Shown here: positions 6,455 through 60,365 of the stretch, piece after piece
Layout: every line of letters begins with the position of its first letter
How positions within the stretch are numbered: the first letter of the stretch is position 1
Source: Eledone cirrhosa
Taxonomy: Eukaryota
DNA: 64,000 nt
Assembly: GCA_964016885.1 (NCBI GenBank)
Contig: OZ024743.1
Location: forward strand, 233,244,001-233,308,000
Reading direction: 5' to 3'
The notes under the pieces: generated by a model
What the model was told of the DNA's origin: nothing
The model's database searches: none
The model's input: only the letters and a program-made list of their open reading frames with translations
Translations under genes and position numbers: made by a program

Positions 6455-6514
<60 letters not shown>

Positions 6515-8582: not shown

Positions 8583-8778
8583 TAGGAAAATGTTTAACCC
8601 TGATGGCAGAGCTCAAGCCGTTTTGACGGCTATTTTTTGACAGAAATAGCCGTCAAAACGGCTTGAGCTCTGCCGTCGGGATTCAACATTTTTTCCTACT
8701 ACCCACTCTACTACCCTAAGTATTGAGTACTCTGGTGTGTTGGGGTCCATCTGGTTCCTTACTATACCTCCTTCGTTA
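8583..8778. mobile_element. Small hairpin-plus-tail element in (TA)n, family copy 1
   Basis: ~50-bp inverted arms 8583-8698 plus ~80-nt tail; inverted homologue at 13260-13440. Confidence 0.7.
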
Positions 8779-9081: not shown

Positions 9082-12000
9082 TCATCATCATCATCATCAT
9101 CAACGTTTAACGTCCGTGTTCCACGCTTGCATGGGTTTGGACGGGGGTAGTCCCACTTGAGGCAAGAGTGATTGTCTTGCTCGCATAGGACTGTCTGGCA
9201 GGTTTTCTACAGTTGGATGCCCTTCCTAACACCAACCACATTTACAGTGTGGGTCTGGGAGGTTTTTACCGTGTTGCCTACACGGCCACATTACAGCGTG
9301 GACTGTGTGTTTTTTTGTCGTGACACCTACACGATCTCATTTGTTTCGGCCTCGATGGCGCGGCACCAACATAACTTTACATAGAACGGGGTGGTGTGGA
9401 TGGGGTGGGGGTGGTGGTGGTGGGACGGGGTGTATTTTGTTAGAGATGCCTACTGGCTGGAGTAGGTTTTACTATATATTTAGGTAAGGCGGGTCTTCTC
9501 TGTTACTGAGTACCGCCAAAGGTCTCGGTCCAGTGACATTGTCTTGGAGAAGTGTAAGTGTGTGATGTCGGAGTTTATCAGCTCGTCCCAGGTTTTTCTA
9601 GGTCTGCCTATTCCGTGACTACCGTCTATCTTTATTGCCCTGCACTTTGTTATACAGCTATCGACTTTCATGCGCATCACGTGTCCATACCAACGTAGCC
9701 TTCTCTCGAGTAAACAACATCTGATCCCTCTTATCTCTAATTTTTTCCTTAGTTCGTTTATGCTTTGCCGTTCACGTATATTACTGTTACACATCCAGCG
9801 GAGCATGCAAGCTTCGTTCCTCTCTAGTCTGCGTATATCCTCTGCACACAATGCCCAGGTCTCACTGCCATGCAGCATTGCTGTTCGTATGCAGGCATCG
9901 TACAACCTGCCTTTCATTTTTAGGGAGAACCCTTTAGCAGCTAATAGTGGTATAAGCTCTCTGAACTTTTTCCAACCAGTTCTGACTCTAGCTACAGTAC
10001 TTTCAGAGCACCCTCCCCCACTGCTGATTTTATCGCCCAGGTAACGGAAGCTGTCCACTATTTCTATAGAACCCTCTGCGCAATTGAAAGAGCTAGTATT
10101 TTGTGGGCACTTGCTGCTACTTATTGCACCAGAGCACCGGCCACATGTAAAATCTATGTTCTTAGTTAGCTTACCTGTGATCCCACTACATCTTTTATGC
10201 ACCCATACTTTGCATTTAGGACATAAAATGGAGTTTCTACCTACGCCTTTCCTACACACCGAGCACGACCATTTCCCAGAAGGGACCGCCGCCTTGTTTT
10301 CTTTCCTACAAACTAGTACTTTGGTCTTAGCCAGGTTAATTTTAAGTCCTTTTGACTCTAGGCCGTGCTTCCATGTTTGGAATTTCTTCTCTAGCTCGGC
10401 CATTGATTCCGCTATGAGTGTCAGGTCGTCTGCGTATAGGAGTTCCCATGGGCAGCCTGTCTTGAACTCCTCTGTTATAGCCTGAAGGGCAATAATAAAT
10501 AGTAGTGGGCTGAGAACAGAGCCCTGATGGACGCCAACTTTTACGCTAAACTCTTCACTATATTCGTTGTTAATTCTAACCTTGCTGACTGTTTCTTTAT
10601 ACATGGCTTGTATAGCCCTCACAAGACATTCGTCAACGCCTAGTTTTCTAAGAGCCCACCAGATAATGGAGCGGGGGACTCTGTCGAAGGCTTTCTCCAA
10701 GTCGACAAAAGCTAAGTAGAGGGGTTTACCTTTAGCTAGGTACTTCTCCTGTAGTTGTCGTACTATGAAAAGAGCGTCTGTGGTACTTTTGCCTGACACA
10801 AACCCGAACTGCATTTCATCTAGGTCAATTCTCTCTCTGATTAGTTGCGCTATTACTTTTTCCGTGACCTTCATGACCTGGTCGATTAATTTAATGCCTC
10901 TATAGTTACTCCTATCTAGGGCGTCTCCTTTACCCTTATAACAGTTAACGATGATGCTGCTATGCCAGTCCTTCGGAACAACCCCATTCTGTACGACTTG
11001 GTTAACTATGCGGGTGACCATGGTGTGTCCCACCGTGCCAGATGCCTTCAGCATCTCAGCAACTATTTCCGAAGGCCCAGCCGCCTTACCCGTCTTCATA
11101 TCCTTGATTGCCTTACTTATTATACTCCCCTCGACTAACACTGCTGGTCCCTCTATTGGGTCGATATGGGGGAGACTGTCTTTCTCCCATTTATTCTCCT
11201 CATTTAGTAGCCTTTCATAGTGACACTTCCAAGCTACCTTCTTATCAGCGTCGGTGATGGCAAGTGTGCCATCGTCGTTTAGTACACACTTCTCCCCGAC
11301 AATATCACGGTTTTCCTTGACGCATTGCCTAGCAATCCTGAACACCTCACGTTTTTGGTCATCGCGTTGTAGAACATGCTTGAACTTTCTTTCCTCAGCT
11401 TCCCTTCTTGCTAAGTACACTTGTCTCCTAGCTTCCCTCCTGGCCACTTGATAGTCTTCTCTACTTCCCCCATCCCGCCATACTTTCCAAGCCTGCTTTT
11501 TGGCCTTAATTGACCCCTCCACCTTACTGTTCCACCACCATGTTACTCTCCTCCTGCCTACAGGCCTGCTCCAGCCACAGACTTCGTCTGTCGCCAACAG
11601 CAGGTTTGCTTTCAGAAATTCCCACTCTCCCTCTATATTGTCCGACTCTAAATGTTCTTCCTTACTGTCGAAAGCATCAAGTAATATGCTTTGAAATTTA
11701 TTCCTGGCTGTGGGGTCCTTTAGCTTCCATATTTTTCTCCTGAGGATAGTCCTCTTCTGCTGTCGAGTACGTCTCGTCCTGACTATGAGGTCGCTAATTA
11801 TCAGTCTATGTTGGGAGGTGCATTCTTCATGGGGGAGGGATTTAGTGTTTACAACAGACACTCTGTCACGTCTTCTGGTAAGGATATAATCTACCTGGCT
11901 TGTGTGTTCCCCGGATCTATAGGTGATCAGGTGATTGTCACGTTTTTTGAAGTTAGTGTTACAGATAGTTAGGTTATTTGCATCACAGAATTCCAGGATT

Positions 12001-13066
12001 CTGGAGCCTTCCTCATTTCTAGTACCAAACCCATAGCCTTCATGGATTTCGTCGTAGCCGTCACAATGTTGTCCAACGTGACCATTTAGGTCGCCTGCGA
12101 TAATTATATAGTCACTGTCGGATATTTGGGAGGTAGTTAGCATCAGTGTCTCATAGAGTCTGTCTTTTATAGTGCCGGGCAGTCCGGATTGGGGTGCGTA
12201 CGCAGATATTACTGTCACCGTAGTTCTATTGAGGACAAGTCGTATTTTAATTATTCTGTCGTTCACTCTATTTACGTCTATTATCTTATCTGCCCACTTT
12301 TCTGCTACCATGATTCCTACTCCACCCAGCCCATCGTCGTTTCCCACCCAGAAAAGCTTATAACATCGTTTTTTACCCTCAATGAACCTAGCAGACCCAC
12401 CCCTCCACCTGGTCTCTTGAATACAACAAACATCGACCTCCTTACGTTCAAGCATTTCTACAACCTCGTTAGCGCGACCCTTTAGGGTGCCTACATTTAT
12501 GGTGCCAACTCTGAAATTTTGGATTGCGTTTGGGGGTTGGGGGCGGTCGGGGGCGGGGGGCGATGGGGTTATGTTAGCCGTCCGCGGTCGAAACAATGAG
12601 GAGTGCTCGCATTCTCGTCCAAGAGGTGAATTTGTCTTTATCTTTGGCATTGTCGCTTGAGCGTCCAGATTTTTCTCTCTCTCTCTCCTCCACTCTCCAG
12701 GATTCCGCAGTCCATCCATCCATCATATATCGAAAGGCAACCAGGCAAGCGATAGTATAGGCCTCTGGCTTCTGATTGGTCCGCGTAATAATACTGGTGA
12801 TGCGTGGGGGCTCTGTTTTATGATTGGTCCACGTAATAGCAATGGTGGTGCGTGGGGATGGGAGGGAGGGGAGTTGGGTAGCTAGATAGAAGGTAATGAT
12901 TGAATGGGGTCCTTGCATTTAACAAGCGATTAACAAAAATACAAAATTTGTTCTGTTCAATACGACCAAAAACTTTCGTATTTAACAATTAATAAAAACA
13001 AAAAATGTAGTTTGTTTTAGCGATAGATTGGCTATTTGGACTTGATACGAAATATGGATTGTTTTG
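9078..13066 (-). mobile_element. Full-length RTE-clade LINE (family 1)
   Basis: Single intact ORF, ~400-nt 3' UTR, (GAT)n tail at ~9078, (TA)n on both flanks; the 5' boundary is approximate. Confidence 0.92.
9480..12719 (-). CDS. RTE LINE ORF, 1079 aa: APE endonuclease, reverse transcriptase and PHD-like Zn finger
   Basis: APE motifs (GTINVGTL, IQETRW, AGDLNGHVG, SQVDYIL, SQHRL); RT motifs (FVDLEKAFD, GVHQGSVLSP, LYADD); RTE-type C-terminus RRLRWYGHVMR...GRPRKTW. Confidence 0.95.
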   Translation of the reverse strand: MDGLRNPGEWRREREKNLDAQATMPKIKTNSPLGRECEHSSLFRPRTANITPSPPAPDRPQPPNAIQNFRVGTINVGTLKGRANEVVEMLERKEVDVCCIQETRWRGGSARFIEGKKRCYKLFWVGNDDGLGGVGIMVAEKWADKIIDVNRVNDRIIKIRLVLNRTTVTVISAYAPQSGLPGTIKDRLYETLMLTTSQISDSDYIIIAGDLNGHVGQHCDGYDEIHEGYGFGTRNEEGSRILEFCDANNLTICNTNFKKRDNHLITYRSGEHTSQVDYILTRRRDRVSVVNTKSLPHEECTSQHRLIISDLIVRTRRTRQQKRTILRRKIWKLKDPTARNKFQSILLDAFDSKEEHLESDNIEGEWEFLKANLLLATDEVCGWSRPVGRRRVTWWWNSKVEGSIKAKKQAWKVWRDGGSREDYQVARREARRQVYLARREAEERKFKHVLQRDDQKREVFRIARQCVKENRDIVGEKCVLNDDGTLAITDADKKVAWKCHYERLLNEENKWEKDSLPHIDPIEGPAVLVEGSIISKAIKDMKTGKAAGPSEIVAEMLKASGTVGHTMVTRIVNQVVQNGVVPKDWHSSIIVNCYKGKGDALDRSNYRGIKLIDQVMKVTEKVIAQLIRERIDLDEMQFGFVSGKSTTDALFIVRQLQEKYLAKGKPLYLAFVDLEKAFDRVPRSIIWWALRKLGVDECLVRAIQAMYKETVSKVRINNEYSEEFSVKVGVHQGSVLSPLLFIIALQAITEEFKTGCPWELLYADDLTLIAESMAELEKKFQTWKHGLESKGLKINLAKTKVLVCRKENKAAVPSGKWSCSVCRKGVGRNSILCPKCKVWVHKRCSGITGKLTKNIDFTCGRCSGAISSSKCPQNTSSFNCAEGSIEIVDSFRYLGDKISSGGGCSESTVARVRTGWKKFRELIPLLAAKGFSLKMKGRLYDACIRTAMLHGSETWALCAEDIRRLERNEACMLRWMCNSNIRERQSINELRKKLEIRGIRCCLLERRLRWYGHVMRMKVDSCITKCRAIKIDGSHGIGRPRKTWDELINSDITHLHFSKTMSLDRDLWRYSVTEKTRLT

Positions 13067-13259
13067 ATATATATATATATATATATCATAAAAGTATGTA
13101 CCCTCCCCTCTTCTCCATTTCTTCCAACCCTTCCATTTCTTTTTCTTCTTCCTCCTTCACCTTCTCTTCCTTCACTTTCTCTTCCACCTCCTTCTCTGTC
13201 TGCTTTCATAGGTTAGACAGGTTGTCATAGTCTGAATTATATATATATATATATATATA

Positions 13260-13440
13260 ACAAAGAAAGTGTGGTAAGAAACCAGGTGGACCATAACGCA
13301 CCAGAGTACTCGATACTTAGGGAAGTAGGGTGGGTAATAGGAAAAGAGTCAGGACCCTGATGGCTAAGCTCTGGCCGTTTTGACAGCTAGCAGTCAAAAC
13401 GGCCGGAGCTCAGATGTCGGGGTCCTGACTCTTTTCCTAT
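13260..13440. mobile_element. Small hairpin-plus-tail element, family copy 2 (inverted relative to copy 1)
   Basis: Tail caccagagtactc.atacttaggg is the reverse complement of 8713-8740; terminal hairpin 13337-13440. Confidence 0.7.
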
Positions 13441-13474
13441 ATATATATATATAAGAAAGGCAATATATATATAT

Positions 13475-15517
13475 ATAAGTAAGGCAATCAAGGATATGAA
13501 GACGGGTAAGGTGGCTGGGCCTTCGGAAATAGTTGCTGAGATGCTGAAGGCATCTGGCACGGTGGGACACACCATGGTCACCCGCATAGTTAACCAAGTC
13601 GTACAGAATGGGGTTGTTCCGAAGGACTGGCATAGCAGCATCATCGTTAACTGTTATAAGGGTAAAGGAGACGCCCTAGATAGGAGTAACTATAGAGGCA
13701 TTAAATTAATCGACCAGGTCATGAAGGTCACGGAAAAAGTAATAGCGCAACTAATCAGAGAGAGAATTGACCTAGATGAAATGCAGTTCGGGTTTGTGTC
13801 AGGCAAAAGTACCACAGACGCTCTTTTCATAGTACGACAACTACAGGAGAAGTACCTAGCTAAAGGTAAACCCCTCTACTTAGCTTTTGTCGACTTGGAG
13901 AAAGCCTTCGACAGAGTCCCCCGCTCCATTATCTGGTGGGCTCTTAGAAAACTAGGCGTTGACGAATGGCTTGTGAGGGCTATACAAGCCATGTATAAAG
14001 AAACAGTCAGCAAGGTTAGAATTAACAACGAATATAGTGAAGAGTTTAGCATAAAAGTTGGCGTCCATCAGGGCTCTGTTCTCAGCCCCCTACTATTTAT
14101 TATTGCCCTTCAGGCTATAACAGAGGAGTTCAAGACCGGCTGCCCATGGGAACTCCTATAAGCAGACGACCTGACACTCACAGCGGAATCAATGGCCGAG
14201 CTAGAGAAGAAATTCCAAACATGGAAGCACGGCCTAGAGTCAAAAGGACTTAAAATTAACCTGGCTAAGACCAAAGTTCTAGTTTGTAGGAAAGAAAACA
14301 AGGCGGCGGTCCCTTCTGGGAAATGGTCGTGCTCGGTGTGTAGGAAAGGCGTAGGTAGAAACTCGATTTTATGTCCTAAATGCAAAGTATGGGTGCATAA
14401 AAGATGTAGTGGGATCACAGGTAAGCTAATTAAGAACATAGATTTTACATGTGGCCGGTGTTCTGGTGCAATAAGTAGCAGCAAGTGCCCACAAAATACT
14501 AGCTCTTTCAATTGCGCAGAGGGTTCTATAGAAATAGTGGACAGCTTCCGTTACCTGGGCGATAAAATCAGCAGTAGGGGAGGGTGCTCTGAAAGTACAG
14601 TAGCTAGAGTCAGAACTGGTTGGAAAAAGTTCAGAGAGCTTATACCACTATTAGCTGCTAAAGGGTTCTCCCTAAAAATGAAAGGCAGGTTGTACGATGC
14701 CTGCATACGAACAGCAATGTTGCATGGCAGTGAGACCTGGGCATTGTGTGCAGAGGATATACGCAGACTAGAGAGGAACGAAGCTTGCATGCTCCGCTGG
14801 ATGTGTAACAGTAATATACGTGAACGGCAAAGCATAAACGAACTAAGGAAAAAATTAGAAATAAGAGGGATCAGATGTTGTTTACTCGAGAGAAGGCTAC
14901 GTTGGTATGGTCACGTGATGCGCATGAAAGTCGATAGCTGTATAACAAAGTGCAGGGCAATAAAGATAGACGGTAGCCACGGAATAGGCAGACCTAGAAA
15001 AACCTGGGACGAGCTGATAAACTCCGACCTCACACACACCTCTCCAAGACAATGTCACTGGACCGAGACCTTTGGCGGTACTCAGTAACAGAGAAGACCC
15101 GCCTTACCTAAATATATAGTAAAACCTACTCCAACCAGTAGGCATCTCTAACAAAATACACCCCGTCCCACCACCCCCACCCCCACCCCCACCCCATCCA
15201 CACCACCCCGTTCTATGTAAAGTTATGTTGGTGCCGCGCCATCCAGGCCGAAACAAATGAGATCGTGTAGGTGTCACGACAAAAAAACACAGTCCACGCT
15301 GTAATGTGGCCGTGTAGGCAACACAGTAAAAACCTCCCAGACCCACACTGTAAATGTGGTTGGTGTTAGGAAGGGCATCCAACTGTAGAAAACCTGCCAG
15401 ACAGTCCTATGCGAGCAAGACAATCACTCTTGCCTCAAGTGGGACTACCCCCGTCCAAACCCATGCAAGCGTGGAACACGGACGTTAAACGTTGATGATG
15501 ATGATGATGATGATGAT
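13475..15517 (+). mobile_element. 5'-truncated, near-identical copy of RTE family 1 (pseudogenised)
   Basis: ORFs 13496-14161 and 14192-15088; TAA at 14159-14161 replaces the Y of YADD; small C-terminal frameshift; (GAT)n tail. Confidence 0.93.
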
Positions 15518-22878: not shown

Positions 22879-24089
22879 CTAGTTAGTAAAAAATAAACCA
22901 AAAAAAGGATTTTTAAGTATTTTTTTTTTTGGTAAATTTTCAACTCTTTTAGGTTGTTAACAAATATACCAGGAACAATAGATCAGATGGACCAAGTATG
23001 TTAAATCAGACAAACCATGTATAAATATTTTTTTGTGTGTGTTGAGCAAGAGACTCCTAGTCTTCATTTAGACATCTCTCTAGAAGGTTACTCTGATATA
23101 AAACTTGTGACTTCATTTGCATCCAATGATGTAGACCAGTTCTTCTTTTTGGGCAAATGCATTCGATGTTCAGAGAGTGGGATTGGACCCGTGCAAAGCT
23201 TTTCCTCACTTTAAAAAGCTTCAAGCACAGGCATCGCTTAATATTTGCCATTTTTGCGATGCATGGTATTGCTAGCTATAGGCAAGTCCCTACCAGGACT
23301 AAATTGCCACATCCACGATACTCATGCTTAAGTATCAAGCGATGGCATTATTCGAAATCAAGTCATTAAGACGTCGGATAGAATGCTTTACGGTATTCGT
23401 CCCACCTCATTGCGCGCTCAGAGTTCAAATCTCACCATGGTCAACTTTGCCTTTCATCATTCGAGGTTGATAAAAAAAAAGTACCAGTCTAGTACCAGGA
23501 CCGATTCTTCCTCTATAGAAAAAAAATCGTTTGTGTTCAGACCTGAAGAGGGTTGGGCACCACCAAGTTTAAAGGTGCCCTAGATACACTGTATGACAGT
23601 GCCCCTACAACTCCACAAGGAGTTATGGGATCTTTATCCTTTTACACACACACATAATTATGTTACCATCAATTTTTGACCAGATATTCTTCATGATGCC
23701 AACTCTTAATTACTGCTTACAACACACAAACACACATGTATGTATGTATGTATTTATGTATGTATGTATCATCCTCATCATCACCGTTTTACGTCCGTTC
23801 TTCCATGCTAGCATGGATTAGACGAATTGTCCTGTTGTGGGCAGTGTCTGGTCGGCTGACCATGCCTTGCTCATACAGGAACTGATTTTGGCTTGATTTC
23901 TACAGCTGGATGCCTTTCCTAACACCAACCTCATTTACAGTGTGGGCTGGGTGCTTTTTTGCCGTGGCACCTCCACGACCACCTTGCAGTGGGAGGGTGT
24001 GAGGGCATATTGTCTATTTGCTTCAGCTTGTACCCATGGGAGGTCGGGTACTCTGTATTACTGCGCGACGCCAGAGGTCTCGGTCGTGT

Positions 24090-24156
24090 GTGTATGTATA
24101 TATATATATATATACATACATACATACATATACATACAGAATAATAAAGATAGACA

Positions 24157-24223
<67 letters not shown>

Positions 24224-25169
24224 ACATATACATATATATACATATACATATATATACATATACATATACATATATATACATATACATATACATATACATA
24301 CATATACATATATATACATATATATACATATACATATATATACATATACATACATATACATATATATATACATATACATATATATACATATACATACATA
24401 TACATATATATACATATACATATATATACATATATATACATATACATATATATACATATACATATATATACATATACATATATATACATATACATATATA
24501 TACATATATATACATATACATATATATACATATACATATATATACATATACATATATATACATATACATATATATACATATACATATATATACATATACA
24601 TATATATACATATACATATATATACATATATATACATATATATATACATATATATATACATATATATATACATATACATATATATACATATACATATATA
24701 TACATACATATACATATATATGCATATACATATATATACATATACATATATATACATACATATACATATATATACATATACATACATATATATACATATA
24801 TACATATATATATATACATATATACATATATATACATATATATATATACATATATATATATACATATATATATATACATATATATATATACATATATATA
24901 TATACATATATATATATACATATATATATATACATATATATATATACATATATATATATACATATATATATATACATATATACATATACATATATATATA
25001 TACATATATACATATATATATATACATATACATATATATATATACATATATATACATATATATATATACATACATATATATACATATATATATATACATA
25101 CATATACATATATATATATATACATACATATATATACATATATATATATACATACATATATACATATAC

Positions 25170-25200
<31 letters not shown>

Positions 25201-25244
25201 CATATATACATATATATATACATATATACATATATATATATATA
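24090..25244. repeat. (TA)n/(CATA)n compound microsatellite
   Basis: Direct inspection. Confidence 0.95.
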
Positions 25245-25368
25245 TGAATATAGACATAGAATATTCGAAAATATTCTGTATGTTTATAATAAACATTTTG
25301 AAGACCTAATCGCTATAGAATAGAATACGTCACGTATTACAATTAGATTCTCGATAAAAGCAAGGGAA

Positions 25369-25411
25369 GTAATCTACGCGTTTCATTCTCGTTAGAAATC
25401 ATCAGGACTAC
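25369..25411 (-). ncRNA. Minimal type I hammerhead ribozyme, inverted arm (also at 25679-25721 and 25989-26031)
   Basis: Exact reverse complement of the plus-strand motif. Confidence 0.82.
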
Positions 25412-26253
25412 ATATCCAGTGCTTTTATCGAGAATGACACAGCTAGAGACTTATAGAATACTTAGCTGTGTACAGGAACTGGTTTGAAAGAGCGGTTGCC
25501 GGTCCGGCAGAAATTAGAAATCGGAATAAATGCTCTGAAATAGCGATATATATGTGAATATAGACATAGAATATTCGAAAATATTCTGTATGTTTATAAT
25601 AAACATTTTGAAGACCTAATCGCTATAGAATAGAATACGTCACGTATTACAATTAGATTCTCGATAAAAGCAAGGGAAGTAATCTACGCGTTTCATTCTC
25701 GTTAGAAATCATCAGGACTACATATCCAGTGCTTTTATCGAGAATGACACAGCTAGAGACTTATAGAATACTTAGCTGTGTACAGGAACTGGTTTGAAAG
25801 AGCGGTTGCCGGTCCGGCAGAAATTAGAAATCGGAATAAATGCTCTGAAATAGCGATATATATGTGAATATAGACATAGAATATTCGAAAATATTCTGTA
25901 TGTTTATAATAAACATTTTGAAGACCTAATCGCTATAGAATAGAATACGTCACGTATTACAATTAGATTCTCGATAAAAGCAAGGGAAGTAATCTACGCG
26001 TTTCATTCTCGTTAGAAATCATCAGGACTACATATCCAGTGCTTTTTAGGTCTTCAAAATGTTTATTATAAACATACAGAATATTTTCGAATATTCTATG
26101 TCTATATTCACATATATATCGCTATTTCAGAGCATTTATTCCGATTTCTAATTTCTGCCGGACCGGCAACCGCTCTTTCAAACCAGTTCCTGTACACAGC
26201 TAAGTATTCTATAAGTCTCTAGCTGTGTCATTCTCGATAAAAGCACTGGATAT

Positions 26254-26296
26254 GTAGTCCTGATGATTTCTAACGAGAATGAAACGCGTAGATTAC
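26254..26296 (+). ncRNA. Minimal type I hammerhead ribozyme, first of 22 plus-strand copies spaced 310 bp apart
   Basis: GUAGUC-CUGAUGA-U(UUCU AACG AGAA)U-GAAA-C GC G-UA^GAUUAC: core boxes, 6-bp stem I, stem II, palindromic ACGCGU helix III, GUA cleavage triplet. Confidence 0.85.
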
Positions 26297-29200
26297 TTCC
26301 CTTGCTTTTATCGAGAATCTAATTGTAATACGTGACGTATTCTATTCTATAGCGATTAGGTCTTCAAAATGTTTATTATAAACATACAGAATATTTTCGA
26401 ATATTCTATGTCTATATTCACATATATATCGCTATTTCAGAGCATTTATTCCGATTTCTAATTTCTGCCGGACCGGCAACCGCTCTTTCAAACCAGTTCC
26501 TGTACACAGCTAAGTATTCTATAAGTCTCTAGCTGTGTCATTCTCGATAAAAGCACTGGATATGTAGTCCTGATGATTTCTAACGAGAATGAAACGCGTA
26601 GATTACTTCCCTTGCTTTTATCGAGAATCTAATTGTAATACGTGACGTATTCTATTCTATAGCGATTAGGTCTTCAAAATGTTTATTATAAACATACAGA
26701 ATATTTTCGAATATTCTATGTCTATATTCACATATATATCGCTATTTCAGAGCATTTATTCCGATTTCTAATTTCTGCCGGACCGGCAACCGCTCTTTCA
26801 AACCAGTTCCTGTACACAGCTAAGTATTCTATAAGTCTCTAGCTGTGTCATTCTCGATAAAAGCACTGGATATGTAGTCCTGATGATTTCTAACGAGAAT
26901 GAAACGCGTAGATTACTTCCCTTGCTTTTATCGAGAATCTAATTGTAATACGTGACGTATTCTATTCTATAGCGATTAGGTCTTCAAAATGTTTATTATA
27001 AACATACAGAATATTTTCGAATATTCTATGTCTATATTCACATATATATCGCTATTTCAGAGCATTTATTCCGATTTCTAATTTCTGCCGGACCGGCAAC
27101 CGCTCTTTCAAACCAGTTCCTGTACACAGCTAAGTATTCTATAAGTCTCTAGCTGTGTCATTCTCGATAAAAGCACTGGATATGTAGTCCTGATGATTTC
27201 TAACGAGAATGAAACGCGTAGATTACTTCCCTTGCTTTTATCGAGAATCTAATTGTAATACGTGACGTATTCTATTCTATAGCGATTAGGTCTTCAAAAT
27301 GTTTATTATAAACATACAGAATATTTTCGAATATTCTATGTCTATATTCACATATATATCGCTATTTCAGAGCATTTATTCCGATTTCTAATTTCTGCCG
27401 GACCGGCAACCGCTCTTTCAAACCAGTTCCTGTACACAGCTAAGTATTCTATAAGTCTCTAGCTGTGTCATTCTCGATAAAAGCACTGGATATGTAGTCC
27501 TGATGATTTCTAACGAGAATGAAACGCGTAGATTACTTCCCTTGCTTTTATCGAGAATCTAATTGTAATACGTGACGTATTCTATTCTATAGCGATTAGG
27601 TCTTCAAAATGTTTATTATAAACATACAGAATATTTTCGAATATTCTATGTCTATATTCACATATATATCGCTATTTCAGAGCATTTATTCCGATTTCTA
27701 ATTTCTGCCGGACCGGCAACCGCTCTTTCAAACCAGTTCCTGTACACAGCTAAGTATTCTATAAGTCTCTAGCTGTGTCATTCTCGATAAAAGCACTGGA
27801 TATGTAGTCCTGATGATTTCTAACGAGAATGAAACGCGTAGATTACTTCCCTTGCTTTTATCGAGAATCTAATTGTAATACGTGACGTATTCTATTCTAT
27901 AGCGATTAGGTCTTCAAAATGTTTATTATAAACATACAGAATATTTTCGAATATTCTATGTCTATATTCACATATATATCGCTATTTCAGAGCATTTATT
28001 CCGATTTCTAATTTCTGCCGGACCGGCAACCGCTCTTTCAAACCAGTTCCTGTACACAGCTAAGTATTCTATAAGTCTCTAGCTGTGTCATTCTCGATAA
28101 AAGCACTGGATATGTAGTCCTGATGATTTCTAACGAGAATGAAACGCGTAGATTACTTCCCTTGCTTTTATCGAGAATCTAATTGTAATACGTGACGTAT
28201 TCTATTCTATAGCGATTAGGTCTTCAAAATGTTTATTATAAACATACAGAATATTTTCGAATATTCTATGTCTATATTCACATATATATCGCTATTTCAG
28301 AGCATTTATTCCGATTTCTAATTTCTGCCGGACCGGCAACCGCTCTTTCAAACCAGTTCCTGTACACAGCTAAGTATTCTATAAGTCTCTAGCTGTGTCA
28401 TTCTCGATAAAAGCACTGGATATGTAGTCCTGATGATTTCTAACGAGAATGAAACGCGTAGATTACTTCCCTTGCTTTTATCGAGAATCTAATTGTAATA
28501 CGTGACGTATTCTATTCTATAGCGATTAGGTCTTCAAAATGTTTATTATAAACATACAGAATATTTTCGAATATTCTATGTCTATATTCACATATATATC
28601 GCTATTTCAGAGCATTTATTCCGATTTCTAATTTCTGCCGGACCGGCAACCGCTCTTTCAAACCAGTTCCTGTACACAGCTAAGTATTCTATAAGTCTCT
28701 AGCTGTGTCATTCTCGATAAAAGCACTGGATATGTAGTCCTGATGATTTCTAACGAGAATGAAACGCGTAGATTACTTCCCTTGCTTTTATCGAGAATCT
28801 AATTGTAATACGTGACGTATTCTATTCTATAGCGATTAGGTCTTCAAAATGTTTATTATAAACATACAGAATATTTTCGAATATTCTATGTCTATATTCA
28901 CATATATATCGCTATTTCAGAGCATTTATTCCGATTTCTAATTTCTGCCGGACCGGCAACCGCTCTTTCAAACCAGTTCCTGTACACAGCTAAGTATTCT
29001 ATAAGTCTCTAGCTGTGTCATTCTCGATAAAAGCACTGGATATGTAGTCCTGATGATTTCTAACGAGAATGAAACGCGTAGATTACTTCCCTTGCTTTTA
29101 TCGAGAATCTAATTGTAATACGTGACGTATTCTATTCTATAGCGATTAGGTCTTCAAAATGTTTATTATAAACATACAGAATATTTTCGAATATTCTATG

Positions 29201-32200
29201 TCTATATTCACATATATATCGCTATTTCAGAGCATTTATTCCGATTTCTAATTTCTGCCGGACCGGCAACCGCTCTTTCAAACCAGTTCCTGTACACAGC
29301 TAAGTATTCTATAAGTCTCTAGCTGTGTCATTCTCGATAAAAGCACTGGATATGTAGTCCTGATGATTTCTAACGAGAATGAAACGCGTAGATTACTTCC
29401 CTTGCTTTTATCGAGAATCTAATTGTAATACGTGACGTATTCTATTCTATAGCGATTAGGTCTTCAAAATGTTTATTATAAACATACAGAATATTTTCGA
29501 ATATTCTATGTCTATATTCACATATATATCGCTATTTCAGAGCATTTATTCCGATTTCTAATTTCTGCCGGACCGGCAACCGCTCTTTCAAACCAGTTCC
29601 TGTACACAGCTAAGTATTCTATAAGTCTCTAGCTGTGTCATTCTCGATAAAAGCACTGGATATGTAGTCCTGATGATTTCTAACGAGAATGAAACGCGTA
29701 GATTACTTCCCTTGCTTTTATCGAGAATCTAATTGTAATACGTGACGTATTCTATTCTATAGCGATTAGGTCTTCAAAATGTTTATTATAAACATACAGA
29801 ATATTTTCGAATATTCTATGTCTATATTCACATATATATCGCTATTTCAGAGCATTTATTCCGATTTCTAATTTCTGCCGGACCGGCAACCGCTCTTTCA
29901 AACCAGTTCCTGTACACAGCTAAGTATTCTATAAGTCTCTAGCTGTGTCATTCTCGATAAAAGCACTGGATATGTAGTCCTGATGATTTCTAACGAGAAT
30001 GAAACGCGTAGATTACTTCCCTTGCTTTTATCGAGAATCTAATTGTAATACGTGACGTATTCTATTCTATAGCGATTAGGTCTTCAAAATGTTTATTATA
30101 AACATACAGAATATTTTCGAATATTCTATGTCTATATTCACATATATATCGCTATTTCAGAGCATTTATTCCGATTTCTAATTTCTGCCGGACCGGCAAC
30201 CGCTCTTTCAAACCAGTTCCTGTACACAGCTAAGTATTCTATAAGTCTCTAGCTGTGTCATTCTCGATAAAAGCACTGGATATGTAGTCCTGATGATTTC
30301 TAACGAGAATGAAACGCGTAGATTACTTCCCTTGCTTTTATCGAGAATCTAATTGTAATACGTGACGTATTCTATTCTATAGCGATTAGGTCTTCAAAAT
30401 GTTTATTATAAACATACAGAATATTTTCGAATATTCTATGTCTATATTCACATATATATCGCTATTTCAGAGCATTTATTCCGATTTCTAATTTCTGCCG
30501 GACCGGCAACCGCTCTTTCAAACCAGTTCCTGTACACAGCTAAGTATTCTATAAGTCTCTAGCTGTGTCATTCTCGATAAAAGCACTGGATATGTAGTCT
30601 TGATGATTTCTAACGAGAATGAAACGCGTAGATTACTTCCCTTGCTTTTATCGAGAATCTAATTGTAATACGTGACGTATTCTATTCTATAGCGATTAGG
30701 TCTTCAAAATGTTTATTATAAACATACAGAATATTTTCGAATATTCTATGTCTATATTCACATATATATCGCTATTTCAGAGCATTTATTCCGATTTCTA
30801 ATTTCTGCCGGACCGGCAACCGCTCTTTCAAACCAGTTCCTGTACACAGCTAAGTATTCTATAAGTCTCTAGCTGTGTCATTCTCGATAAAAGCACTGGA
30901 TATGTAGTCCTGATGATTTCTAACGAGAATGAAACGCGTAGATTACTTCCCTTGCTTTTATCGAGAATCTAATTGTAATACGTGACGTATTCTATTCTAT
31001 AGCGATTAGGTCTTCAAAATGTTTATTATAAACATACAGAATATTTTCGAATATTCTATGTCTATATTCACATATATATCGCTATTTCAGAGCATTTATT
31101 CCGATTTCTAATTTCTGCCGGACCGGCAACCGCTCTTTCAAACCAGTTCCTGTACACAGCTAAGTATTCTATAAGTCTCTAGCTGTGTCATTCTCGATAA
31201 AAGCACTGGATATGTAGTCCTGATGATTTCTAACGAGAATGAAACGCGTAGATTACTTCCCTTGCTTTTATCGAGAATCTAATTGTAATACGTGACGTAT
31301 TCTATTCTATAGCGATTAGGTCTTCAAAATGTTTATTATAAACATACAGAATATTTTCGAATATTCTATGTCTATATTCACATATATATCGCTATTTCAG
31401 AGCATTTATTCCGATTTCTAATTTCTGCCGGACCGGCAACCGCTCTTTCAAACCAGTTCCTGTACACAGCTAAGTATTCTATAAGTCTCTAGCTGTGTCA
31501 TTCTCGATAAAAGCACTGGATATGTAGTCCTGATGATTTCTAACGAGAATGAAACGCGTAGATTACTTCCCTTGCTTTTATCGAGAATCTAATTGTAATA
31601 CGTGACGTATTCTATTCTATAGCGATTAGGTCTTCAAAATGTTTATTATAAACATACAGAATATTTTCGAATATTCTATGTCTATATTCACATATATATC
31701 GCTATTTCAGAGCATTTATTCCGATTTCTAATTTCTGCCGGACCGGCAACCGCTCTTTCAAACCAGTTCCTGTACACAGCTAAGTATTCTATAAGTCTCT
31801 AGCTGTGTCATTCTCGATAAAAGCACTGGATATGTAGTCCTGATGATTTCTAACGAGAATGAAACGCGTAGATTACTTCCCTTGCTTTTATCGAGAATCT
31901 AATTGTAATACGTGACGTATTCTATTCTATAGCGATTAGGTCTTCAAAATGTTTATTATAAACATACAGAATATTTTCGAATATTCTATGTCTATATTCA
32001 CATATATATCGCTATTTCAGAGCATTTATTCCGATTTCTAATTTCTGCCGGACCGGCAACCGCTCTTTCAAACCAGTTCCTGTACACAGCTAAGTATTCT
32101 ATAAGTCTCTAGCTGTGTCATTCTCGATAAAAGCACTGGATATGTAGTCCTGATGATTTCTAACGAGAATGAAACGCGTAGATTACTTCCCTTGCTTTTA

Positions 32201-32965
32201 TCGAGAATCTAATTGTAATACGTGACGTATTCTATTCTATAGCGATTAGGTCTTCAAAATGTTTATTATAAACATACAGAATATTTTCGAATATTCTATG
32301 TCTATATTCACATATATATCGCTATTTCAGAGCATTTATTCCGATTTCTAATTTCTGCCGGACCGGCAACCGCTCTTTCAAACCAGTTCCTGTACACAGC
32401 TAAGTATTCTATAAGTCTCTAGCTGTGTCATTCTCGATAAAAGCACTGGATATGTAGTCCTGATGATTTCTAACGAGAATGAAACGCGTAGATTACTTCC
32501 CTTGCTTTTATCGAGAATCTAATTGTAATACGTGACGTATTCTATTCTATAGCGATTAGGTCTTCAAAATGTTTATTATAAACATACAGAATATTTTCGA
32601 ATATTCTATGTCTATATTCACATATATATCGCTATTTCAGAGCATTTATTCCGATTTCTAATTTCTGCCGGACCGGCAACCGCTCTTTCAAACCAGTTCC
32701 TGTACACAGCTAAGTATTCTATAAGTCTCTAGCTGTGTCATTCTCGATAAAAGCACTGGGTATGTAGTCCTGATGATTTCTAACGAGAATGAAACGCGTA
32801 GATTACTTCCCTTGCTTTTATCGAGAATCTAATTGTAATACGTGACGTATTCTATTCTATAGCGATTAGGTCTTCAAAATGTTTATTATAAACATACAGA
32901 ATATTTTCGAATATTCTATGTCTATATTCACATATATATCGCTATTTCAGAGCATTTATTCCGAT

Positions 32966-35094
<2,129 letters not shown>

Positions 35095-35341
35095 GTAGAT
35101 AAATCTACCAAGAGTTTACGGTAGTGTCCAATCCGTATGAAGAACTCAATGTATTCCGGATATCATGGAAAGAAGAGATGTAATGAAAAATCACTTTCGG
35201 TGAAAGATAAACGGTATACAGAGTCAAGATAAAATATTAAACAAATAATGAATAAAACAATGAAACAGTTCCTTATATTAAACAAAAAAAGTTCATTATT
35301 TAACGATCGTTTCTAGGATATATATGTGTTAGAATTGGCAT

Positions 35342-35902
35342 GCATATTCAACAACAAATAACATAAAACAAAATATAAGTGCCTATAATGCATATAAATG
35401 TAAGAAAACCATAAGTATACCACCAGTACATCAAATTAACCATAATATCTCCTCAAATACAGAATTAACGAAAGGTTGTAACTGTAGAAACAAAGCAAAC
35501 TGCCCATTAAAAGGGAATTGTCTTGTTAACAACATAGTCTATAAATGTAATGTTAAAACTAAAGATTCTATTTGCTCATATATAGGAGCTACCTCTAACA
35601 ATTTTAAGACAAGGTTTAATACCCACAAGCATAGTTTTAAAAATGCCGCACTGGCTAATACAACATCTCTAGCAGAAAAAATCAATAGTTATAAAAATAA
35701 GAATATAGAATATGATTTGACCTGGAGTGTGCTCAAAAGAGCCACCCCTTATCAAAATAATAGAAATGAATGTAGATTATGTTCCCAAGAACTATTTGAA
35801 ATAATGAAATCTAAGGATATCCTATTAAATAAACGACAGGAATTAATTATATCGTGTAATCATAAACTAAAAAAAACATTTAAATATTATAAACCTAATT
35901 AA
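35342..35902 (+). pseudogene. Penelope-like ORF C-terminus: Cys-rich linker and GIY-YIG endonuclease
   Basis: Open frame AYSTTNNIKQNISAYN...GCNCRNKANCPLKGNCLVNNIVYKC...SYIGATSNNFKTRFNTHKHSF...CRLCSQE...LLNKRQELIISCNH; in frame with ORF 35717-35902. Confidence 0.88.
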
Positions 35903-36394
35903 TAACATTATTTTAGAAATTAATTTAATTTAAATGTTAGTTAACCTATAAATTTAATTTAATTAAAATTCTACTACAGATGAGAATATAAAATATTGTG
36001 TAATCATAAATTGTGAAAAACCTTTAAATATTACTAATATATACTTAGTAATTTAATTTATAGATTAATTTTAATTTATTTAAACCTTTTATTAAAATTC
36101 CTTTACAGATAAAATATAACAAAATATCGTGTATCCAATGACAGAGAAATAATTTTTAGTATTATAGACCTAATTAATATACATTTTAGAAATATATTTA
36201 TAATTTGGTTTTAAATTTAGTCAACCTAAAAATTTAATTTAATTGGCTTAAAATTAGTATCCTTATACAGACGGATTGCAGAGTGTCATGTAATCATAGA
36301 ATGGGATGTGTTTTGGATGTATACCTAGTTAATATATTCTTTGCAATTTTTGAAAAAATATGTATATGTATGTATGTATATATATGTGTATGTA

Positions 36395-36433
<39 letters not shown>

Positions 36434-36989
36434 GTGTATGTATATGTATATGTATATGTATTAATTTTGATTTCTATTTGCATATAATTATATTCTGCTA
36501 TTGATAAAATACAATATCTGTTTTATTTATTATATACCTAATTAACATATACTATAGAAATTAATATATAATTTTTAATTTAGTTAACCTATAATTTATA
36601 TTCTACTACCGATGTAATACTTTATTTGTTTTTTCCCTATTACTAAATTCATTTCCTAATATTGATACCATAACGTTAATAACCTTAATTTAGTTATACT
36701 ATAATTAATACTCTACTACTATTTAACTTCAAAATTCTGCTTCAAATATTATAAACCTAACTAATTTACACCTTAGAAATCAATATGTTAACTATCTTTA
36801 GTTTAGTTAACATATAATTAATGGTATACTTATTTTGAAATGCATAATTTTGCCTTATTTCTTGTATTTCCTAACACTGAAACTATGTAAAAACATATAT
36901 TGGGATCCAGATACAGATAATATTCTATGTTTCTTGAAACATATATTTACTATAATCCCCTTCTCCAACCCCCCCCCCTTTCCCCCATA

Positions 36990-37435
36990 CTATTATCATC
37001 TGTGTTTGTAAGCGTGTATGTATGAATATATATGTAGGTAGGTGTATATATGTTTGGGTATTTATATCTGAATATAAAAATACATATATGCGCATGCAAA
37101 TAAGAATGTAAGATTGTGTGTGTATATATATGTGTGTATGTATATATATATGTGTATATATGCATGTGTATATATATGTGTATATGTATATATATATATA
37201 TGTGTATATGTGTGTATGTGTGTGGGCGTGTATGTGTGTGTGTATATATATATATATATATGTGTGTATGTATGTGTATATATATATGTGTATATATATG
37301 TATGTCTCTCTATATATATGTCTATCTTCGTATCTATGTGGGTATATGTGTGTATGTACATGTATGCACATGTATGTGTTTATGTGTATATGTGTGTATG
37401 TGTATATATGTACGTGTGCGCACATATATATGTGA

Positions 37436-37473
<38 letters not shown>

Positions 37474-37506
37474 GTATATCTATGTGTGTATATATGTCTA
37501 TATTCG

Positions 37507-37537
<31 letters not shown>

Positions 37538-38093
37538 TATTTATTATTATAATATAACTTATGTGTATGTGTGTATATGTGAGGGTGTGTATATGTATAT
37601 ATATGTATATATATGTGTAAAAAAAAAATATATATGTGTATGTGTGTTTTTTTTGTGTGTGTGTATATATATGTATGTATATATGTGTGTATGTGTGTGT
37701 TTGTATGTGTGTTTATGGTTGTATGTGTGTGTGGGTGTATATATATAAATGTATGTGTATATATATATATGTGTATATGTATCTCTATTAATGTGTGTAT
37801 ATATGTATATGTATATACCTTTTTCTTTGTATGTCTGAGTTGTGTGAGAGTGTAGTGGTGTTTGTATGTATATACGCATATATGGATGCGTATGTATTTG
37901 TATATATGAGTATATGTAAGTGCGTATGTATGTATGAATATATATCTATGTCTATGTATGAGTATATATGTGTGTGTATGTATGTTGTGTGTGTATGTAT
38001 GTATGTGTCTATGTGTGTATATATATATATATATATGTGTGTGTATGTATGTATGTATGTGTATGTATGTACATATATGTCTATGTATATGTG

Positions 38094-38130
<37 letters not shown>

Positions 38131-38647
38131 TTATTTTATATATATGTGTGTGTGTGTATATGTGTGTGTGTGTATATATATCTTTATATATGTGTATGTG
38201 TATGTTCGTGTAGGTGTATGTGTGTGTATGACTATATATGTATGTGTGTATGTGTGTATGTATGTATATGTATGTGTGTGTACATGTATGTATGTGTATG
38301 TATATATATGTGTGTATATGTGTATGTATATATATATATATATATGTGTATATATATATATATATGTATATGTATCTCTATTTGTATGTGTATATGTGTA
38401 TAGGTATATACCTTTTTCTTTGTATGTCTGAGTTGTGTGAGAGTGTAGTGGTGTTTGTATGTATATACCGATATATGGATGCGTAAGTATTTGTGTGTAT
38501 GTATGTATGTATGTCTGTATGTATTTGTGTGTATATATAGGTATGTATGTGTATATCTGTATGTATATAAGTATGTATGTGTATGTATATGTGCGTGTAT
38601 GTGTATATATATGTGTGTCTATATATATATGTGTGATTATATGTGTA

Positions 38648-38688
<41 letters not shown>

Positions 38689-38782
38689 GTATGTGTGTAT
38701 ATGTGTGTATGTGTGTATATGTATATGTTTATATATGTGTGTGTATGTGTGTTCTAAGTGTAGATGTGTGTATATGTATGTG

Positions 38783-38855
<73 letters not shown>

Positions 38856-38860
38856 TTTCT
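36990..38860. repeat. (TG/TA)n compound tract with a ~600-bp-spaced internal duplication
   Basis: atacctttt..ctttgtatgtctgagttgtgtgagagtgtagtggtg occurs at ~37815 and ~38408. Confidence 0.85.
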
Positions 38861-39476
38861 TGATATATTTCTTTTTTCTTTTTTCTTTTTCTTTTCTTTC
38901 CTTTTTAATTTTTATTTTTTATTTCTTAGTTTATAGATACATCTATAAATAAGCAGTCTGCCCAAACCGTTGAATACTGACCTCTCCCCCCCTCCCACCT
39001 AATTTCTGTATCTTGATCTAAATGTGTGTGGCAGTGTTTATGTGAGTGAATTAATATCCATGTGCTTATGATAATATTATATCCACATATATATATGTGT
39101 GTGGGGGTGTGTGTGTGTATGTATGTTCGTAATTATGTGTATGTTTATGCATATACGCGCGCGTGTGTGTGAGTGTACGGATATGTGTGAGTATGAGAAT
39201 ATGTGTATACACTTATTTCATATTTATGTGTCTATACGCATCTTATCTGTGCATTATAAACTTACAGAGACATTAACCTTGAAATTTTGTATTTGCATGC
39301 ATCTTTTTGGCATGCGTATGCATGTTGAGCATACATCTTTGTATAAATATGTGTACGGGGTAGTTACATGTATATACACACACCAAACTGCATAAAACCT
39401 TTTGTATTTTCATTGGTCAATTTTGTTCCCAAACGGACCTGAAATTTTGAATTGTTGTTATTATCAATAAATATAT

Positions 39477-39631
39477 TTCATTATTTCTGAAGACGGCGTA
39501 TATGTGTGTTTGGTATGTATATTTAATCTTGATAGTTTGTATAATTTTGTATAATTTTGTACATAGATCTGTTGAATATGCATGCCAATTCTAACACATA
39601 TATATCCTAGAAACGATCGTTAAATAATGAA
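39477..39631 (+). ncRNA. Putative type I hammerhead ribozyme with a very long stem II, in the Penelope pseudo-LTR
   Basis: UUCAUUAUUU-CUGAAGA-[~116 nt]-GAAAC GAUC GUU^AAAUAAUGAA; 10-bp stem I; palindromic helix III. Confidence 0.7.
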
Positions 39632-39693
39632 CTTTTTTGTTTAATATAAGGAACTGTTTCATTGTTTTATTCATTATTTGTTTAATATTTTAT

Positions 39694-42790
<3,097 letters not shown>

Positions 42791-42872
42791 GAGAATGATA
42801 GGCAGAGGCAACCAAAGATAGACAGACAAACAGTTAGAGAGAGAAAGAGACAAATAATTAAAGCCATCTCAC

Positions 42873-45584: not shown

Positions 45585-45912
45585 GGAGGCACATGGCTTA
45601 GTGGTTAGAGCATTTGCCTTGCAATCGAAAGGTTGTGAGTTCAATTCTCAGACCGGGTGATGTGTTGTTTCCTTGAGCAAGACACTTTATTTCACATTGC
45701 TCCAGTTTACTCAGCTGTAGAAATGAGATGATAGGGACTGGGGTCTATATCATTCCACTACAAAGTGGTCGTGGAGGTGCCACGGCAAAAAAGCACCCAG
45801 CACTCACTGTAAATGAGGTTGGTGTTAGGAAGGGCATCCAGCTGTAGAAATCAAACCAGAATCAGTTCCCGTCCCACCCTTGCAAGCAGGGAAAAAGCGG
45901 ACGTAAAATGAA
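45585..45912 (+). mobile_element. Full-length tRNA-derived SINE with RTE family-2 tail
   Basis: A/B boxes, ccttgagcaagacactt core, tail nearly identical to the 3' end of the LINE at 62892-62947. Confidence 0.87.

Positions 45913-56670: not shown

Positions 56671-60365
<3,695 letters not shown>

Follow-up and report, generated by a model that had tools for sequence, protein, structure and literature searches.

An intron of the MYCBP2 gene of Eledone cirrhosa carries an array of 310-bp repeats with hammerhead ribozyme motifs, in which a short arm at one end is turned around relative to the units beyond it, and this raises the questions of how such an array comes to point both ways and whether the hairpin that results matters to a neuronal gene. 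The array lies in a 64,000-nucleotide stretch of contig OZ024743.1 (assembly GCA_964016885.1, positions 233,244,001 to 233,308,000 of the forward strand), called the window below, in whose coordinates all positions are given (Table 1). Mapping of the arms confirmed the claim of an earlier note that orientation flips at 26046/26047, that the arms diverge head-to-head and that both 3' ends run into (TA)n; TA/TACA tracts followed the 3' ends of both arms. With unit positions numbered from the predicted ribozyme cut site, the arms were not mirror images at the junction, starting at unit position 259 (minus) and 66 (plus), and a single T at 26046 was common to both. The minus arm (25245-26046) had no mismatch to the 310-bp unit, and the plus arm (26046-32965) carried two substitutions only, at 30600 and 32760.

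The unit is non-coding, its longest frame being 59 amino acids (aa), and fits the range of about 170-400 nt of the tandem units of retrozymes that lack long terminal repeats (non-LTR retrozymes). Read from its letters, each unit contains a hammerhead motif of type I, whose helices I and II have 6 and 4 bp, the latter with U-U at its base, and whose helix III is a single pair closed by a palindromic tetraloop. The predicted cuts in the minus arm match the sites that had been given for it earlier (25995, 25685 and 25375). The core was intact in 24 of the 25 motifs of the array, the exception being a C-to-T core change at 30600 in the main arm. None of 8 ribozyme sites with locus-fixed variants fell in the 11-nt core (p=0.07), while among sites changed in single units 6 of 14 did, which hints weakly that templates may need a working ribozyme. 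Like the unit, metazoan non-LTR retrozymes are non-coding tandem units of 170-400 nt with a type I hammerhead (PMC7229834; 10.64898/2026.07.22.740005), and the two axolotl motifs have the same one-pair helix III, palindromic tetraloop and U-U at the base of helix II; for this weak helix III type, dimers were required for good cutting (PMC7229834). The array is likely a non-LTR retrozyme that inserted recently, built of a 310-nt hammerhead repeat with putative cleavage, transcription and circularisation.

The inversion is the rule of the family and not a peculiarity of the MYCBP2 locus. The exact ribozyme motif had 4054 matches genome-wide, and the first 100 of these fell in 10 arrays, a subset not chosen by ends, of which 9 were two-armed and head-to-head. 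The 3' ends lay at two places in the unit about 35 nt apart, positions 125-139 ("short") and 162-170 ("long"); genome-wide, the junction of the short end with TA had 1339 matches and that of the long end with TA had 1212. Judged from these patterns, there are over a thousand dispersed back-to-back insertions of the 310-base repeat in the genome. In the first 208 Mb of contig C1, with 84 long and 100 short ends listed, all 60 divergent neighbor pairs (counted within 20 kb) consisted of one long and one short end, and none was long-long or short-short. Besides the window and the 10 arrays, the mapped loci were drawn from 40 of the 59 pairs lying less than 9 kb apart, from 20 of the 24 long ends without a partner and from 20 of the 40 short ends without one. 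L045 (a complex duplicated junction) and L109 (the same locus as L059) were dropped before counting, L087 (a 270-nt foreign insert) was left out of the junction statistics and L095 out of the length statistics, and the long end of L038 was placed by hand, its map having read into a neighboring repeat. Two arms were found in 74 of the 89 mapped loci, and 73 of these 74 had one short and one long end, the remaining one running off the fetched stretch. TA runs met 159 of 161 3' ends, a count biased by selection, and all ends in the 10 arrays not chosen by ends. The 5' inversion and the TA targeting that had been described for the MYCBP2 array are therefore both found in other arrays. Arms reached 27 units and differed by at least 2 units in 40 of 73 loci. 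Either could exceed the other in length (long > short in 39 of 73), and the shorter arm measured at least 802 nt in 37 of 73, giving stems at least as long as the one in MYCBP2.

A second non-coding hammerhead family, with 1369 exact matches (for example, L042 at 2860-3040, and L166-L175), is related in helix II and has a helix III that is stable. Its copies stand in (TA)n, mostly alone or in short pairs placed head-to-head, and their 3' ends fall at two places that by eye lie about 70 nt apart. As a partner of the unit it was rejected, being non-coding in the 8 loci read. Half or more of the words of the unit (window 25236-26700) were present in 20 public runs with 18 organism labels from 17 studies, and public-run contigs matched it over 340 nt with one difference (X2) and over 280 nt with three (X17); kin sharing, horizontal spread or contamination could each account for this. 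A flank that recurred in public-run contigs had one genomic match.

We compared the arrays with Penelope-like elements (PLEs), whose published hallmarks are a tail of 30-40 bp on one of the ends, a copy that is 5'-truncated and inverted, and a bias toward (TA)n (PMC8557442). The endonuclease-containing (EN+) PLE clades, of which Hydra is nearest by motif, share with the arrays tandem copies, the inverted 5'-truncated copy, the 30-40-bp tail and (TA)n targeting (Craig et al. 2021, PMC8557442); the arrays differ in that the unit encodes nothing, the arms reach up to 27 units, and the tail is seen as a strict pairing of one short with one long end. The PLE tail has been mapped to two reverse transcription (RT) start sites of the Poseidon protein, which cuts and extends both strands (PMC11167929), and Poseidon PAc in vitro resembles the arrays in its two internal start sites bracketing the tail, its handling of both strands and its AT-rich targets (Frangieh et al. 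2024, PMC11167929). The earlier note held that the Penelope element beside the array has an inverted 5' arm as well, and this is right for the element at 35092-39687 (inverted arm of 262 bp) but not for a second Penelope at 58414-60170, which lacks one. The neighboring family has a 6643-bp unit with an 830-aa frame and is young, 150 scored matches being 100% identical over 160 aa. Its motifs, read by eye (RWR, DKT, CxCX5C, plus GIY-YIG at the C-terminal end), are Hydra-like compared to PMC8557442; Pfam returned no match for the frame, a pattern search of the unit found no hammerhead core, and a 6643-bp unit does not fit the hammerhead and length of <3 kb of the Hydra clade. One short (6350) and one long (6493) end were present in 8 of the 10 inverted insertions examined, the window copy included; of the other two, one was short-short and one ended elsewhere. 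The second PLE family, also young, is one-armed in the window and has its own hammerhead motif, and its ends lie about 58 nt apart, with one of each in both of the inverted pairs read. Taken together, these comparisons of sequence make a Penelope class of machinery behind the array well supported, while neither PLE of the window is shown to be its driver. Separately, about 4 kb within the unit of the neighboring PLE is non-coding and resembles microsatellite sequence, and the element is found as at least 5 full copies in tandem (contig C6, 49.52-49.57 Mb).

The template of the arms was examined through their variants. Among the 50 loci in which both arms had at least 2 units, 23 haplotypes were found, and the majority haplotype was common to both arms in 47, compared to 249 of 2450 cross-locus pairs (10%). 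Of the 25 genome-wide matches to G at unit position 163, 24 were at the MYCBP2 locus, 22 in the plus arm and 2 in the minus arm, and 16 of 34 locus-fixed variants were found at one of the 89 loci only. Because such locus-private variants fill every unit of both arms, terminal part-units included, a one-unit bottleneck is placed close to each insertion. Most simply, this would be a monomer circle read repeatedly; tandem cDNA from circular RNA, like mobilization by PLEs, has been proposed for non-LTR retrozymes (PMC7229834). As a separate observation, in L100, L120, L065 and L089 the arms switch haplotype or carry the same single-unit variants at equal distance from the target end, a record of mixed templates.

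The joints between arms were also compared. Overlap averaged 2.27 nt in the 59 of 73 junctions without an insertion, with 0.76 expected, and the other 14 junctions had 1-7 added letters. The 5' ends were uniform over the unit (p=0.28), and ends set by ribozyme cleavage were rejected since only 2 of 146 lay near the cut site. Symmetric junctions (within 25 nt) were not enriched, with 14 of 73 found and 12 expected; this, and the fact that either arm may be the longer, led us to reject snap-back, the copying of one arm off the other, as a general route. In L087, about 270 nt of unrelated, GC-richer sequence (2199-2470) stands between the arms, possibly captured RNA or DNA filler.

We consider it probable that a Penelope-type enzyme made both arms by reverse transcription, starting at the two ends of a cut within a TA microsatellite, and that the MYCBP2 hairpin is a likely by-product. 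Each nicked target strand would prime at its own internal start site of the same RNA molecule, the template would usually be a monomer circle read round and round and sometimes a mixed multimer, and the two cDNA ends would then be joined by microhomology. As a predicted consequence, read-through from either side would meet antisense units before sense units.

Several observations weigh against this. One arm alone was found in 15 of the 89 loci (one of them running into N), and most loci were picked by patterns of end plus TA, which biases the two-arm and TA counts upward. A Rfam search at gathering and E-value thresholds gave no hammerhead match in the array. No homology of the unit to either PLE family was found beyond TA tracts and 11-13-letter words, and the PLE ends are offset by 143 and about 58 nt compared to 35 nt in the unit. 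The claim that Penelope machinery mobilized the array is well supported for the class, through the inversion, the (TA)n targeting, the two-position 3' end across the family and the published PLE hallmarks, but is not shown for the adjacent element, given the lack of homology and the difference between offsets of 143 and 35 nt. Both end sites in the arrays show an AT overlap with the target and the genomic pairs are asymmetric, whereas the Poseidon start site in vitro is described as non-homologous to the target and the same on both strands (PMC11167929). A pure monomer circle does not explain the minority variants that stand in register in both arms at L100, L120 and L065, which suggest that both primers began at one and the same unit of a mixed multimer, nor those that stand out of register at L089, L093 and L054. 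Variants repeat periodically in L054, L087 and L052, indicating some later expansion.

The in-register and periodic variants just described are also what would be expected if the same two-ended Penelope-type priming used an uncut linear multimer RNA from a source array, with no circle and with later unequal crossing-over and conversion making the arms more uniform and longer. The weak correlation of arm lengths (Spearman 0.26, p=0.03) agrees with such a template, and uncut RNA was the main Poseidon substrate in vitro (PMC11167929). We nevertheless regard it as unlikely, since the locus-private variants in every unit (G163 at the MYCBP2 locus; 16 such variants across the loci) would require a one-unit bottleneck at nearly every insertion, and since 62 testable minority variants were not mirrored in the other arm against 12 that were. 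Head-to-head joints with microhomology are also the pattern left by L1-style twin priming, and the window contains an intact young frame of a long interspersed nuclear element (LINE) with an apurinic endonuclease-reverse transcriptase (APE-RT), of an RTE-like family, at 9480-12722. Twin priming by this LINE predicts a variable internal second site with the junction near it, but both starts are fixed here and the 5' ends are uniform, either arm may be the longer, and the same end rule is found in PLE families, all of which makes it a highly improbable source of the arrays. There remains the concern that the inverted arm is a fold-back read or an assembly artifact, from which identical arm sequences would also be expected. 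We give this almost no weight: the two arms do not meet as mirror images (259 versus 66), the inverted arm does not mirror the long one but ends in a different TA flank at the short end of the family, the MYCBP2 exons are collinear across the array, symmetric junctions are found at about the expected number, and the rule of one short and one long end cannot arise from fold-back. In addition, contigs of the public run X1 contained 14 other head-to-head joints of the unit, of which 5 loosely matched mapped loci, a number too near the roughly 3.6 expected by our estimate to be informative. None of the listed public-run contigs of X1, X5 and X6 (one sample) or of X4 bridged 26046; rare forms drop out of contigs, and the sample may lack the insertion, so that this speaks neither for nor against the junction. 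In X23, none of the raw reads, sampled at about 1 in 100, aligned.

We then considered what the hairpin might do in the MYCBP2 transcript. The earlier note had described a perfect hairpin of about 800 bp, and a perfect stem of 802 bp is predicted; the stem closes a 192-nt loop and its partner lies at 26239-27040, so the end that had been given, 26850, was too short. An alternative register has a stem of about 685 bp around 116 nt. Equilibrium folds of the growing transcript with 655 nt of upstream antisense, which ignore kinetics and proteins, placed 57 of 58 sense letters in duplex with the upstream antisense when the first sense ribozyme was complete, and the probability of helix I was 0.0 with this antisense compared to up to 0.99 without it. 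This model predicts that the antisense units, which are transcribed first, sequester all three sense ribozymes; free ribozymes would number none in the MYCBP2 direction and about 19 in the opposite one. As antisense is met before sense from either side, the ribozymes of any such insertion are predicted to be sequestered unless the second arm is longer, and arm orientation could thus matter in introns, given the difference of 2 units or more between arms noted above.

A selected role for the hairpin in MYCBP2, through controlled cleavage of the intron, recruitment of ADAR or small RNAs in neurons, agrees with the strand of the host and the antisense-first order, with the perfect stem, and with squid adenosine-to-inosine (A-to-I) sites, which are ubiquitous and lie mainly in introns and untranslated regions over repeats (PMC9068888). 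We judge it very unlikely, as two substitutions in about 7.7 kb mark a very recent insertion, stems at least this long are found in 37 of 73 loci, and a 2029-bp inverted LINE pair of 97.9% identity is present at 9103-15492. Moreover, cleavage by an intronic hammerhead left splicing intact in human cells, though a faster ribozyme blocked it (Dye 2006, via PMC2995048), and hammerheads of the weak helix III type cut well only as dimers. Of what had been proposed for this locus, the geometry (a minus-strand host, antisense first, and three sense ribozymes) stands, and quenching agrees with the folding prediction, but nothing supports a role as a regulator or as an ADAR or Dicer substrate in a neuronal gene. 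The hairpin predicted for this intron is probably a by-product that would block its own ribozymes and not a gene switch, and the copy in MYCBP2 probably matters little for function. Inverted pairs of short interspersed nuclear elements (SINEs) or LINEs form intronic double-stranded RNA that is edited by ADAR. Intronic repeats are commonly edited in squid (PMC9068888), so A-to-I editing of the MYCBP2 hairpin is plausible and ordinary; the hairpin resembles such inverted-repeat RNA in being a long intronic duplex from mobile repeats, and differs from inverted SINE or LINE pairs in having been made in one insertion event and in holding ribozymes that are predicted to be blocked by the duplex.

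Retrozymes have been proposed as non-autonomous partners of PLEs (Cervera and de la Pena 2020, PMC7229834), and the partnership has been argued from co-occurrence and from trees of pseudo-long terminal repeats (pLTRs) (Li, Clavereau and Pollet 2026, 10.64898/2026.07.22.740005). Expression, cleavage and circles have been shown for published retrozymes, whereas they are predicted for the unit, and no pLTR homologous to it was found in the two PLE families compared; conversely, the passages on published retrozymes cited here mention neither inverted arms nor pairs of fixed ends, and no targeting of microsatellites. In the literature covered, which included passages of PMC11722881 and had subscription papers outside its scope, we found no description of inverted, fixed-end retrozyme insertions or of the rule of one short and one long end. 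PMC8557442 counts the way in which PLEs produce tandem and inverted insertions among the open questions. Mobilization of retrozymes by PLEs has so far been based on co-occurrence and pLTR similarity, and a non-coding passenger with over a thousand fresh insertions would provide direct PLE footprints, namely, one short and one long start and one template molecule for both arms. These footprints can be checked in the existing in vitro PLE assay, and for copies in introns the antisense-first rule makes a prediction that can be tested. We consider the findings moderately valuable for the mechanism of PLEs and weak as MYCBP2 biology. More tentatively, and with considerable doubt, PLE enzymes may insert as asymmetric dimers, priming the two cut strands at different fixed sites of a single RNA circle and going round that circle twice over. 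The head-to-head layout would then be self-muting, as every host transcript would read antisense before sense; selection would keep those intronic copies, such as the one in MYCBP2, whose longer arm is antisense to the host, and silencing of the family would be fed by the hairpins.

Table 1. Coordinates of the array, its flanks, the neighboring PLE and the host intron in the window
Feature	Positions	Strand	Remarks
MYCBP2 intron holding the array	22879..42872	-	20 kb; phase 0; within second PHR domain; GT-AG
Left TA/TACA microsatellite	24093..25244		target flank of inverted arm
Inverted (minus) arm	25245..26046	-	2.59 units, 802 nt; 3' end at unit position 130 (short); sense on MYCBP2 pre-mRNA
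Hammerhead motif 3, sense	25369..25411	-	predicted cut 25375/25374
Hammerhead motif 2, sense	25679..25721	-	predicted cut 25685/25684
Hammerhead motif 1, sense, type I	25989..26031	-	predicted cut 25995/25994; first met by MYCBP2 transcription
Head-to-head junction	26046		1-nt overlap; unit positions 259 (minus arm) and 66 (plus arm) joined
Main (plus) arm	26046..32965	+	22.32 units with 22 hammerhead motifs; long 3' end, at unit position 165
Stem partner of inverted arm	26239..27040	+	predicted 802-bp stem, 192-nt loop
Right TA/TACA microsatellite	32966..35091		target flank of main arm
Inverted 5' arm of neighboring PLE	35092..35353	-	262 bp; ends at its long end, unit position 6493
Main arm of neighboring 5'-truncated PLE	35345..39687	+	short end 6350; GIY-YIG end of open reading frame at 35333-35902

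The host gene was placed by its exons. PHR-domain exons were found on the minus strand with Pfam PF08005, together with a match to MYCBP2 in PDB 3hwj (E=1e-18), and the exons are collinear from 53.5 kb to 18.1 kb, spanning the array; these matches and their order bear out the earlier placement of the array in a MYCBP2 gene transcribed on the minus strand. An exon at about 6.1 kb looks filamin-like, and MYCBP2 has a filamin repeat; a PDB search with this exon gave no match, and a PF03256 search did not locate later MYCBP2 exons. A bacterial promoter scan of the window, irrelevant here, was at chance level. The inverted LINE pair consists of APE-RT copies with a PHD finger (9103-11124 and 13470-15492), lies 10 kb from the array and probably belongs to the same pre-mRNA. 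A frame of 1080 aa is open in the copy at 9480-12722. A 20-bp minisatellite of 294 copies, likely intronic, fills positions 1-5901. Short related palindromic elements stand beside TA runs at 8587-8692 and 13337-13440, with a similar one in locus L147, and a tRNA-like match at 45594-45651, just above the Rfam cut-off, is likely the head of a SINE.

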